The notes below the pieces were generated by a model that made no database searches, was not told the origin of the DNA, and saw nothing but the letters and a program-made list of their open reading frames with translations. Positions 10,893 to 14,219 of a stretch of 36,006 bases of DNA are shown one piece after another. Location: the IMG/VR virus record IMGVR_UViG_3300006029_000026, positions 1 through 36,006 of that record. One strand, given 5' to 3'. Within the stretch, counting starts at the first letter, position 1; every line of letters begins with the position of its first letter. Position numbers and translations under genes: made by a program. Source of the DNA: a virus. Taxonomy: Duplodnaviria > Caudoviricetes.

Positions 10893-13800
10893 ATGAGCAA
10901 TAGCACTTTACTGAAGCTGAAAGATGCCGCGGGAAACCTACAACAGTTTAATACCTCTTCAGATTTAGACTATATTAATGTGCAAAGTGCTAATTGGTTG
11001 GCAAGCGCCACCAGTAACTGGTACATGAATACCACTTCTGGTAATTCGGTTGGGTCCCATACAGATACAGTCTACGATCAAGCTCCTGGTGCTCACGATT
11101 CATTATCGATTAGTACAACCACCACGAATCTATATCAAAATTATACAGCGCCATCCGCTCCTACTGTTGTGCCTCTATCTTTTGATGCAGGAGCTGCATA
11201 CGAGATGATACCGACTGATATCAATTCAATTGCTGATGATATCATTTCTTATATTTTTACCAATGATGGTCCAGGGGCTTATAGATTAGCAGTTTCCTCA
11301 CCTGGTGCTGGATGGTCTGCAGAGCTTAGTAATGTATTTACTGATACCAGATCTGATGGTACTACTATTAATTACACGCTTTGGAAAAGAACCTCGATTA
11401 CTGTTCCTACTGCGGTAAGACCTATTAAAATAAAATACGTCGCTTCTGCATTTGCCGGCTTTCAAGAGATGTCGGATGCTGAAATAAAAGAAGCGTTTGG
11501 GTATTATTTAATTGATAGGATATCAACTACAGGCGTTGGTAAGTATCAGTTAAGAAGTTCTGTACAAGGTACGCCAACTGATCCCGGTACATGGGTTACA
11601 AAAGGAACCGCTCTTGATACCAGACAACAGGTTGCAGAAGAAGCATACACAAGAGACAGTACTAACGTCTTTAATAGAGATAGCACACAAAACTTTACTC
11701 GTGACAGTTCACGAGTCAGTACTTTAAATTTTGTACGTACAAGCCAGGTAGCATTCTCCTCGGAGTACACCAGAACAAGTCTTGTCAACTTCTCAGCAAA
11801 CTATATCAGAGAAAGCACTACAGAATTTACTAATAATTTTAATCGTGATAGCACTAGAAATTCTCTACAGACTTTCTTGGGTAACTACACAAGAGTAAGT
11901 CAAACTAGTTTTACTAGTGACAGTACTAGAGTTTCTACCGCGGCATTTAGTAGAAATAGTACAAGAGTATCTAATCTTGATTTTACACGAACAAGAGAGT
12001 CGACGTATCTTGGTAACTACGCTACTACTTATCTCGGTAATTACGTTGGTGGTAACTTTGCTGGTAACTACGAGGGTAACTTTACGGGTAACTATCAGGG
12101 TAACTTTATTGGCGATTACACTGGTGACTTTATTGGTGGCAACTTCCTAGGAGACTATACCGGTAACTTTATAGGTAACTATCAGGGTAACTTTATCGGT
12201 GACTATGCTGGTAACTATGTTGGAGACTTTGTTGGTGGCAACTTTCTTGGCGACTATACTGGTAACTTTATTGGCGGTAACTTCCTTGGTGACTATGCTG
12301 GTAACTTTTTAGGGGATTTTGTTGGCGGTAACTTTCTTGGCGACTATACTGGTAACTTTGTTGGCGGTAACTTCCTTGGTGACTATGCTGGTAACTTTGC
12401 CGGTAACTTTGTCGGAGATTACATTGGTACCCAAAATTATACCAGAACTAGCACTAGATTAAGTCAACGCACGTCTACTGTGAACTATACAAGAAATAGT
12501 CAACGCACCTCGACTGTGAACTATCAACGTACTTCGACTGTGAACTATCAACGTACCTCTACAAGAACTTCGACTGTGAACTATCAACGTACCTCTACAA
12601 GAAGTTCGCTTACATACTTCCTTGGTGACTATGCCGGTAACTACCTAGCTAACTTTACTCGGGTTAGTAATCGTACAAGTACCCGATATTCTACTGTAGA
12701 TTATACTAGAAATTCGCTTGTCCCATATGCTAGAACTTCTACGAGAAGTTCCACTAGGGCTTTTGCTGGTAACTTTGATGGTAACTACGTCGGTGACTAC
12801 CTAGCTAACTTTCTTCGTACTAGCACAAGAACTTCTACTCGGACAAGTACAAGAATACGCGCTCTTCAGGGTGGCAGCGTGCAATATTATGGCGGCTCAC
12901 CAGCATACTTTGGTGGTGGCATTAAGTACTACATTGGAGACTTTGTTGGTAACTTTGCTGGTAACTTTGTAGGGGACTACGCGGCTAACTTTCTTCGAAC
13001 TAGTACTCGTACGATTACTAGAAGTTCAACTAGAGCATTTGCTGGTAACTTTATAGGTAACTATTCTTCTGACTTTATAGGTAACTTTGTAGGCGGTAAC
13101 TTCCTTGGTGACTATGCTGGTAACTACACCGGTGACTACGCTGCTAACTTTACTCGAACTAGCACAAGAAACAGACTAAATGCAACCTATGCAGGCAACT
13201 TTCTTGGTGACTTCGTAGGCGGTAACTTTGTAGGGAACTATACCGGTGACTTCGTAGGCGGCAACTTCCTCGGTGACTTTGTAGGAGGTAACTTCCTCGG
13301 TGACTATACCGGTGACTTTGTAGGTGGCAACTTCCTTGGTGACTATACTGGTAACTTTGTAGGGGACTACGCTAACGAAAATACTAACTTTACTCGAACT
13401 AGTACAAGATCTTCTACTAGAACTTCACAAAGAACAAGCACTGTCGATTACACAAGATTAAGTCAGCGTACGTCTACTGTTAACTATCAACGCACCTCAA
13501 CTAGAACTTCACAAAGAACAAGCACCGTTGATTACACAAGATTAAGTCAGCGTACGTCTACTGTTAACTATACGAGAACTTCACTCAGAACTTCCACGAA
13601 AGATTCTACAGTAAACTTTACCAGAGACAGTACCAGAAACAGTCAAAGAACTTCTACTGTAAACTACACAAGAAATAGTACAAGAGATTCTACTGTAGAT
13701 TATACACGCGTTAGGGCGCAAGATTTTACCCGAACACGAGAAGTTGCATATGCTGGTAACTATGTTGCTCACTATGACGGTAACTATGTAGGTGGTAATT

Positions 13801-14219
13801 TCTTAGGTAATTATCTTGCTGATTATACCGGTGACTTTGTAGGTAACTATATTGCTGATTATTTGGGTAACTTTATCGGCAACTACATTGCAGATTACAC
13901 TGGTGACTTTATTGGGGATTATACTGGTGACTTTATTGGTAATTACATAGGCGAATATACTGCTGAATACACAGGAAACTTTGTGGGTGACTATGTAGCA
14001 CATTATGAAGGTAATTTCTTAGGCAATTATGTTTCAGATTATACCGGAGAGTTTATTGGTAACTATACTGCAGATTACACAGGTAACTATATTGGTGATT
14101 ATATAGGCAACTTTATAGGCAATTATACTGGCAACTTTATTGGCGACTATACGGCTTCCACCGTCCAAGGAACAGACGAAACTCTAGAGATATATACATT
14201 ATACGTTCGAACAGCATGA
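10893..14219 (+). CDS. Putative filament protein B: about 250-aa N-domain plus mirror-nested tetrapeptide blocks, one tip loop
   Basis: 1108-aa ORF with SD GAGGA; same N-domain and C-terminal strand as 8796-10883. Confidence 0.75.
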   Translation: MSNSTLLKLKDAAGNLQQFNTSSDLDYINVQSANWLASATSNWYMNTTSGNSVGSHTDTVYDQAPGAHDSLSISTTTTNLYQNYTAPSAPTVVPLSFDAGAAYEMIPTDINSIADDIISYIFTNDGPGAYRLAVSSPGAGWSAELSNVFTDTRSDGTTINYTLWKRTSITVPTAVRPIKIKYVASAFAGFQEMSDAEIKEAFGYYLIDRISTTGVGKYQLRSSVQGTPTDPGTWVTKGTALDTRQQVAEEAYTRDSTNVFNRDSTQNFTRDSSRVSTLNFVRTSQVAFSSEYTRTSLVNFSANYIRESTTEFTNNFNRDSTRNSLQTFLGNYTRVSQTSFTSDSTRVSTAAFSRNSTRVSNLDFTRTRESTYLGNYATTYLGNYVGGNFAGNYEGNFTGNYQGNFIGDYTGDFIGGNFLGDYTGNFIGNYQGNFIGDYAGNYVGDFVGGNFLGDYTGNFIGGNFLGDYAGNFLGDFVGGNFLGDYTGNFVGGNFLGDYAGNFAGNFVGDYIGTQNYTRTSTRLSQRTSTVNYTRNSQRTSTVNYQRTSTVNYQRTSTRTSTVNYQRTSTRSSLTYFLGDYAGNYLANFTRVSNRTSTRYSTVDYTRNSLVPYARTSTRSSTRAFAGNFDGNYVGDYLANFLRTSTRTSTRTSTRIRALQGGSVQYYGGSPAYFGGGIKYYIGDFVGNFAGNFVGDYAANFLRTSTRTITRSSTRAFAGNFIGNYSSDFIGNFVGGNFLGDYAGNYTGDYAANFTRTSTRNRLNATYAGNFLGDFVGGNFVGNYTGDFVGGNFLGDFVGGNFLGDYTGDFVGGNFLGDYTGNFVGDYANENTNFTRTSTRSSTRTSQRTSTVDYTRLSQRTSTVNYQRTSTRTSQRTSTVDYTRLSQRTSTVNYTRTSLRTSTKDSTVNFTRDSTRNSQRTSTVNYTRNSTRDSTVDYTRVRAQDFTRTREVAYAGNYVAHYDGNYVGGNFLGNYLADYTGDFVGNYIADYLGNFIGNYIADYTGDFIGDYTGDFIGNYIGEYTAEYTGNFVGDYVAHYEGNFLGNYVSDYTGEFIGNYTADYTGNYIGDYIGNFIGNYTGNFIGDYTASTVQGTDETLEIYTLYVRTA
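11643..14156 (+). repeat. Coding tetrapeptide repeat region of filament protein B (about 200 units)
   Basis: Seven R-type and seven G-type blocks arranged around a central non-repetitive loop at 12855-12926. Confidence 0.9.

Follow-up and report, generated by a model that had tools for sequence, protein, structure and literature searches.

How can a long chain of similar tetrapeptides find a defined fold, and what would a phage use it for? The question is raised by a 1108-amino-acid (aa) protein encoded at 10893-14219 (+) in the IMG/VR virus record IMGVR_UViG_3300006029_000026 (Duplodnaviria; Caudoviricetes), of which positions 1 to 36,006 were analysed and are called the window here. An earlier note, made from the DNA letters alone, had proposed that its basic/hydroxyl (R) and Gly/aromatic/acidic (G) tetrapeptide blocks zip up antiparallel, by charge and size complementarity, around a central loop. 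Our analysis of the sequence indicates that the two 400-residue arms very probably pair in reverse order as a fold-back antiparallel hairpin. The whole is read, at a probability of roughly 0.6, as a giant antiparallel beta-hairpin whose base, built of three repeats, is completed by the C-terminal tail; as a monomer it would dock on the tip of a trimeric fibre and act as an adhesin that extends the phage's reach.

Probable pairing between the two arms

An automatic tetrapeptide parse, in which units fitting neither class strictly (e.g., NYLA, AFSS) took the class of their block, returned R30 G34 R15 G3 R9 G4 R4, loop, G5 R4 G9 R3 G15 R30 G34, the same block counts as had been made by hand, and the loop sequence quoted earlier agrees with the translation of 12855-12926. 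Before pairing, 18 residues outside the four-residue frame were set aside (12 single Gly, TQ, A and ENT). Folding the chain back then yields 99 gapless unit pairs between residues 251-654 and 683-1088, in line with the estimate of about 100 units per arm, around an axis at 668.5 instead of near residue 666 as first placed.

In this fold-back, position 2 of a unit lies opposite position 2 of its partner unit and position 4 opposite position 4 of the next unit, while positions 1 and 3 are opposite each other. Pairs at position 2 join an aromatic residue or Ser to an aromatic one, pairs at position 4 set Arg against Gly or small against small, and Val is found opposite Gly-Gly, presumably a classic beta-bulge. 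Arg at position 4 has Gly opposite it in 58 of 59 pairs; when units were shuffled within blocks, with the block structure kept, none of 20,000 shuffles matched this single exception (mean 8.1 exceptions). All 12 single extra glycines lie opposite xSTV or TRE[SV] units (0/20,000 shuffles; mean 2.8, maximum 9), and 12 of the 14 such units have a facing extra Gly, the two without it being DSTV. Gln at position 3 is opposite Asp at position 1 in 13 of 15 pairs, which was reached in one of the 20,000 shuffles.

Tandem duplications located with Tandem Repeats Finder (Table 1) stand in facing blocks, as separate events of 90/84, 39/36 and 27/24 base pairs (bp) whose lengths differ by exactly the bulge codons, and from these pairs we infer compensatory duplication. 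Contigs from all four of four public runs cover all 30 bins of the window, yet break at the recent duplications, and the copy number is therefore without independent confirmation.

A fold can be proposed from this code. One face of a ribbon would carry positions 2 and 4 (aromatic, Ser, Arg, Gly) and the opposite face positions 1 and 3 (Asn, Asp, Thr, Ile, Val), with Arg placed over the gap left by Gly and stacking on neighbouring rings. Alternating blocks and irregular bulges would give each stretch one partner, fixing the register and preventing slippage, and the stalk could change in length through paired duplication. For 396 pairs at 2.5-3.3 Å per residue, values that we assume, 99-131 nm is obtained, and the extended ribbon would be about 100-130 nm long. 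The chain would run out and zip back on itself as a thin stalk, likely clipped onto the tail fibre to reach the host, whose surface may be bound by the Tyr/Gly tip or, in some relatives, by a globular insert.

Homologues and the base domain

Searches with the base domain gave 15 proteins and, when the best 80 of 260 matches were followed, 68 viral loci; the family counts 603 clusters at 50% identity, and its complete members are 381 to 3347 aa long, with their blocks in mixed order. From a first set of 79 complete distinct proteins, 15 without anchor patterns were dropped and the 64 left were reduced to 42 representatives below 70% identity. The first eight units from each end were then paired with no gap fitting in 41 proteins, the 1108-aa protein being excluded. 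At the predicted register, Arg-Arg made up 2 of 142 Arg pairs, as against 8-27 at six other unit shifts, with an odds ratio of 5.8 for Arg versus Gly. A fresh set began with 142 new proteins, of which 110 possessed the tail; after removal of 34 that lacked anchors and 30 similar to the first set, 46 were tested, and Arg-Arg occurred in 1 of 133 against 7-25 at other shifts (odds ratio 4.3). Kinship among homologues inflates p-values, not the contrast between shifts. The register holds in both held-out sets, and the antiparallel zipping of the arms is supported jointly by the residue-level code, the paired DNA duplications and these homologues.

Gapped fold-back alignment under two-fold cross-validation, from which the 3347-aa member was left out because of its length, outperforms every one of 20 unit shuffles in 40 of 41 proteins; for the 1108-aa protein it yields arms of 404 and 406 residues and a 27-residue tip. 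This tip (655-682), with Tyr, Phe, one Arg and one Lys, stayed unpaired under a pairing matrix trained without the protein itself. The correlation between arm lengths is forced by the alignment and carries no evidential weight. Tips of homologues are loops or globular ends of very different size, some loops having only 4-30 residues. Where the facing residue is Gly, Arg has Tyr as one diagonal neighbour in 284 of 391 cases and beta-branched residues have Phe in 73 of 111, both counted from symmetrised, non-independent windows; the coupling is stronger on one diagonal than on the other, as in a twisted ribbon. Many relatives combine Tyr-Tyr with small residues and have little or no Arg, indicating that size counts more than charge. 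Complementarity as proposed earlier is thus retained for Arg over Gly and aromatic over Ser, and charge is given up as a general rule.

Further observations concern individual relatives. In the long members P0006, P0007, P0008 and P0015, hundreds of residues in the interior show an aromatic at intervals of 3-6 positions and are unpaired under the learned code, and in L050, L067 and L069 one of two hairpin copies fits this code poorly. Loci L049 (9977-12454) and L047 (8959-11085) have 98% identical bases, and the returning arm of L049 carries a 117-aa insert in which three G units lead into an ~85-aa domain, followed by Arg units. By eye the insert might be read as a closed side branch; a greedy local-stem search paired its units otherwise, and pairwise indel mapping is ambiguous. 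Paralogue A, encoded just upstream, is 40% identical to the 1108-aa protein over 248 columns (the first ~250 residues). Its stem joins 251-434 with 497-675, and an automatic search confirms the main stem alone; by eye the tip looks like a forked end whose first loop is similar to that at the tip of the 1108-aa protein, a fork that the greedy search again paired otherwise. The open reading frame (ORF) of L033 ends CLLYTSPSPRDVEE at the contig end, which we take to be a translated sequencing adapter and likely an artefact.

Among 50,697 phage records, the sole relative is CDS0201 of phage C48C1 (WJE88074.1, OQ984149.1), a 'hypothetical protein' of 3347 aa (L002 14980-25023), which shares the base, the tail and three downstream genes with the locus studied; the glycosyltransferase and the cupin (Table 1) also each match only C48C1 in these records. 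At three times the length, CDS0201 holds several globular inserts, most of them in the second half, and around residues 2010-2140 a stretch that is duplicated almost exactly; the C48C1 genome matches the cupin at three places. The literature searched, with most subscription papers outside its scope, contained no paper under the C48C1 name or accession. A pattern search of 185,579 species genomes returned one contig of a metagenome-assembled genome (MAG), carrying the same phage cassette. This contig, L071, belongs to a Microbacteriaceae MAG and holds the whole cassette; it may hint at the host, or the phage contig may have been binned wrongly.

In the C-terminal tail, Y1101, T1102, L1103, Y1104 and R1106 are invariant in 40 sequences. 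AlphaFold2 gave the last block a predicted local distance difference test (pLDDT) value of 96, with continuous strands at 234-269 and 1069-1106, and at 243-269 and 400-428 in homologue L011. In these models both hairpin ends are predicted to join into the base, the first and last 15-25 arm residues being paired strands; the tail is predicted to complete the base as last strand of the third repeat, and the base to be pseudo-threefold. The tail weakly matches the last strand of base repeat 2 (E 0.011), and the arms emerge where the hairpin of the third repeat turns, a place taken by a short turn in repeat 2. In the VIA rows, residues 247-1092 were aligned to hairpins. Of the arm pairing expected from structure prediction, the closing of the hairpin ends into the base was obtained, whereas the arms themselves were unresolved in two predictions (arm pLDDT <50).

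No characterised family was recognised, in line with the earlier note. Pfam had no match for the 1108-aa protein, the PDB had no sequence match to the base domain at E up to 1, and Foldseek against PDB and BFVD had none at E 0.001. PHROGs gave two repeat-only matches of unknown function, with no stretch passing alone, and the ESM Atlas only unnamed viral clusters (0.81-0.85).

Gene neighbourhood and competing readings

By PHROG and Pfam matches, the window holds the clustered structural genes of a T4-like myophage, arranged in T4 order (wedge, VrlC-like (phrog_358), fibres, neck, terminase, sheath, tube, portal, major capsid). The best-matching public runs carry the label freshwater metagenome, and no RNA dataset was among the listed runs matching the window. 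The 1108-aa ORF lies between the VrlC-like and the neck genes, a region described in the accessible text of PMC7029224 as the host recognition cluster of pelagimyophages. The first VrlC-like ORF (676-4821) ends in a Hint (intein-like) domain (Pfam PF05203) closing HNRC, and the phrog_358 match runs on into the next gene (4855-6474), so that the VrlC-like protein is split just after a self-cleaving-type domain. A sulfotransferase-like gene (PF03567) is located at 31568-32350, between the gp67-like and prohead protease genes.

Table 1. Features of the 1108-aa protein, its DNA and the neighbouring genes
Feature	Position	Strand	Details
Fibre-like protein ending YNTAGTLLN	6695..8785	+	PHROG structural/tail fibre matches; candidate docking partner
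Paralogue A, 695 aa	8796..10883	+	base as in 1108-aa protein; arms ~180 residues; two loops in tip region
Base domain, residues 1-250	10893..11642	+	three pseudo-repeats of ~80 aa, each one helix and closing beta-hairpin; weak beta-prism likeness
Outgoing arm, residues 251-654, 99 tetrapeptides	11643..12854	+	R30 G34 R15 G3 R9 G4 R4
90-bp tandem duplication, 2.4 copies, outgoing G block	12186..12399	+	7 units and 2 Gly
24-bp and 36-bp tandem duplications, outgoing R15 block	12500..12608	+	
Tyr/Gly-rich tip, residues 655-682	12855..12938	+	candidate receptor-binding loop
Returning arm, residues 683-1088, 99 tetrapeptides	12939..14156	+	G4 R4 G9 R3 G15 R30 G34
27-bp and 39-bp tandem duplications, facing G15 block	13244..13363	+	each one Gly codon longer than partner
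84-bp tandem duplication, 2.4 copies, facing returning R block	13397..13603	+	7 units
C-terminal tail ending YTLYVR	14157..14219	+	predicted last strand of third base repeat
154-aa conserved protein, no family	14227..14691	+	possible chaperone (guess); no Pfam match at threshold
GT-A type glycosyltransferase-like protein, conserved DAD	14660..15457	+	Pfam GT2/GT8 E 4e-4 and 9e-4, below curated cut-offs
Asp/Asn beta-hydroxylase-like cupin	15457..16131	+	conserved WHNN...YH..R; Atlas feature score 0.92
LtfC-like tail fibre assembly protein	16997..17338	+	PHROG, Pfam
Long tail fibre-like protein ending YRIDVYNAAGTLLN	19406..22645	+	PHROG tail fibre matches, terminal motif alignment; candidate docking partner

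Downstream of the hairpin gene, the cupin and LtfC are present in all 31 distinct loci that contain sufficient sequence, and the 154-aa gene (within 6 kb) and the glycosyltransferase in 28 of them; in the other three (L050, L067, L069) the latter two lie wholly or partly between two hairpin genes. The cupin has HNN where such enzymes, we assume, usually show HxD. A tentative proposal is that the hydroxylase-like and glycosyltransferase-like neighbours might modify the Asn/Asp/Thr face of the fibre, and glycosyltransferases of the host recognition region are also read, in the available part of PMC7029224, as acting on host lipopolysaccharide. The ORF just upstream ends Y[DN]xxGxLLN in 24 of 25 two-copy hairpin loci and 4 of 15 one-copy loci, as does the downstream fibre in most loci reaching that far. 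Together, the shared fibre-end motif and the pseudo-threefold base suggest that one hairpin chain caps the end of a trimeric fibre. In a reverse test of 80 loci picked by the fibre-end motif, 16 of 60 with the terminal motif show a hairpin gene or the cassette; most loci lacking these had no upstream DNA, which makes the test mostly uninformative. The motif does not align to the base repeats.

Several results call for caution about the hairpin adhesin. Block counts alone are weak evidence, given that class complementarity is 96% in the mirror and still 84% in a parallel arrangement of the arms. One of the 40 winning homologues pairs just 4 residues and only the outer 30-170 residues pair in the longest members, both of which limit the fold-back result, and for docking, the count of fibre-end motifs to hairpin genes is not one to one. 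The 84% also speaks for a local folding of blocks, be it a cruciform of R30/G34 side hairpins, parallel pairing or beta-solenoids of lone blocks, as does the outgoing R30, whose Arg is opposite Gly in 14 of 14 pairs when set against the adjacent G34. Near-neighbour R30/G34 pairing is nevertheless excluded because the six bulges of the outgoing G34 are matched by units of the far R30 alone, the near block holding one such unit, and the 90-bp and 84-bp duplications connect far blocks as well. It is the residue-level code that decides for the mirror, since the best parallel registers reach at most 42 of 51 Arg-Gly pairs and 5 of 11-12 bulge matches. Lone solenoids would entail no end-to-end covariation, yet covariation is found in homologues, and the parallel beta-solenoid once named as a counter-case is abandoned; local folding as a whole can scarcely hold. 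The same code might instead be met between two chains, in an antiparallel domain-swapped dimer forming a tether with a base at each end, like the duplex of a DNA palindrome, and by logic covariation cannot separate pairing within a chain from pairing between chains. Such a dimer is very improbable: the ends of relatives vary widely in size, the loops of 4-30 residues being as expected for a turn, and base repeat 2 closes the equivalent hairpin within the chain.

Other rivals keep the pairing and change the shape. The ribbon could coil into a shorter, thicker superhelix or compact body, since all large aromatic and Arg side chains would be on one face and could pack ribbon to ribbon, and the asymmetric diagonal couplings would suit a strongly twisted ribbon. 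A spread in length of 381-3347 aa, combined with a mixture of block orders, better suits a linear stalk, and a second long-range register was not seen, though none was sought; coiling appears improbable. Two-stranded ribbons leave hydrogen-bonding edges free and most phage fibres are trimers, which both count for three hairpin copies wound together as a needle of six strands, as in the T4 gp37 tip, the Asn/Asp/Thr/Ile face pointing inwards and the aromatic/Arg face outwards. The nested topology is that of gp37, with the needle in the base and the tip in the stem (accessible text of PMC6957217; six strands, PMC9659904). The base, however, is confidently predicted to fold as a single chain with three internal repeats, inserts in one arm such as the 117 aa of L049 are easier on a lone ribbon, and there is no gp37 sequence match in the PDB. 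The iron-binding His pattern of gp37, which we take to be HxH, is missing too (0 HxH and 3 His in 13,518 paired arm residues of 41 proteins; 2 His in the 810 arm residues of the 1108-aa protein), and the needle is considered unlikely. For the hairpin adhesin, the odds are about even that a monomer sits on the fibre end. Its fullest version, a single-chain two-stranded beta ribbon longer than 100 nm with a base-pairing-like tetrapeptide code that includes bulges, forks and side branches, RNA-stem-like evolution through paired duplication, growth from one loop of a pseudo-trimeric beta-prism base clipped to a tail-fibre end, and hydroxylation and glycosylation by the cassette, is possible and somewhat doubtful.

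If the structure holds, a new class would be added to the short list of fibrous protein designs, with contacts readable from sequence as in an RNA stem, and hundreds of natural examples of register-keeping in a very repetitive beta zipper would become available. Beta-strand pairing rules and the design of programmable rulers and tethers would then be concerned. A host-recognition component that is widespread in aquatic T4-like phages and lacks annotation would receive a name (the 603 clusters above), and phage C48C1 provides a cultured test case for the hairpin fibre.

Comparison with known systems

Among the closest designs is the T4 gp37 tip (collar D10 and needle D11; accessible text of PMC6957217 and PMC9659904), which has, as proposed for the 1108-aa protein, an antiparallel out-and-back stem set in a base finished by the C-terminus and a small tip at the far end, in the context of T4-like phage tail fibres. 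As far as these texts describe it, gp37 has about 50 residues per arm and is a trimer holding seven irons by His, whereas the arms of the 1108-aa protein run to about 400 residues each, under a strict tetrapeptide pairing code, and its base has three repeats. A gp37-type collar (gp10/gp11/gp12 homologue) gave no PDB sequence match at E up to 1 and was absent from the listed fold-search rows, an absence that does not speak against a collar. With arms eight times longer and the His-iron pattern absent from its sequence, the protein is not filed under the gp37 needles.

The gp38 adhesin of Salmonella phage S16 (PDB 6F45; PMC6851490, as far as available) is one chain that caps a trimeric fibre, gp37 of that phage, through a three-helix, pseudo-threefold attachment part, and the likeness lies in the proposed working mode, a variable receptor-binding end on a capping chain. 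The base studied here is predicted to have three repeats with one helix each, and 6F45 was not among the listed fold-search rows. Features of gp38 are its three Trp, beta-helix and polyglycine sandwich. The 1108-aa protein lacks the three Trp, one per helix: its single invariant Trp is W234, located in a strand, and Tyr or Phe fills most of the remaining aromatic columns; it also lacks the polyglycine II sandwich, with Gly at every fourth residue facing Arg and Gly runs only in the short tip. Its distal part would be a giant hairpin, and docking is suggested by gene counts only.

The MABP beta-prisms MVB12B (3tow), perforin-2 P2 (6sb1) and the MACPF-associated prisms (8b6v, 2qp2) weakly resemble the base at 7-9% identity, with a root-mean-square deviation of about 4-5 and middling Z; unlike them, it would add three helices and a hairpin of ~400 residues per arm, with no pore-forming domain. 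MABP prisms bind acidic membranes through a basic and hydrophobic loop, with which the composition of the tip (Tyr, Phe, one Arg, one Lys) may be compared. For the cassette, Mimivirus L230 is described in the available portion of PMC4691112 as a lysyl hydroxylase/glucosyltransferase acting on viral collagen-like proteins, again a virus-encoded hydroxylase and glycosyltransferase beside or acting on a repetitive fibre protein; in the window these are two separate genes, and the fibre is a putative substrate of the pair. The fibre design was not found described in the literature searched, most subscription papers and supplements being outside its scope, and as a fibre design the 1108-aa protein is outside the families tested. 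In parallel beta-solenoid or triple beta-helix fibres the repeats stack in one direction, whereas the 1108-aa protein shows end-to-end mirror dependence instead.

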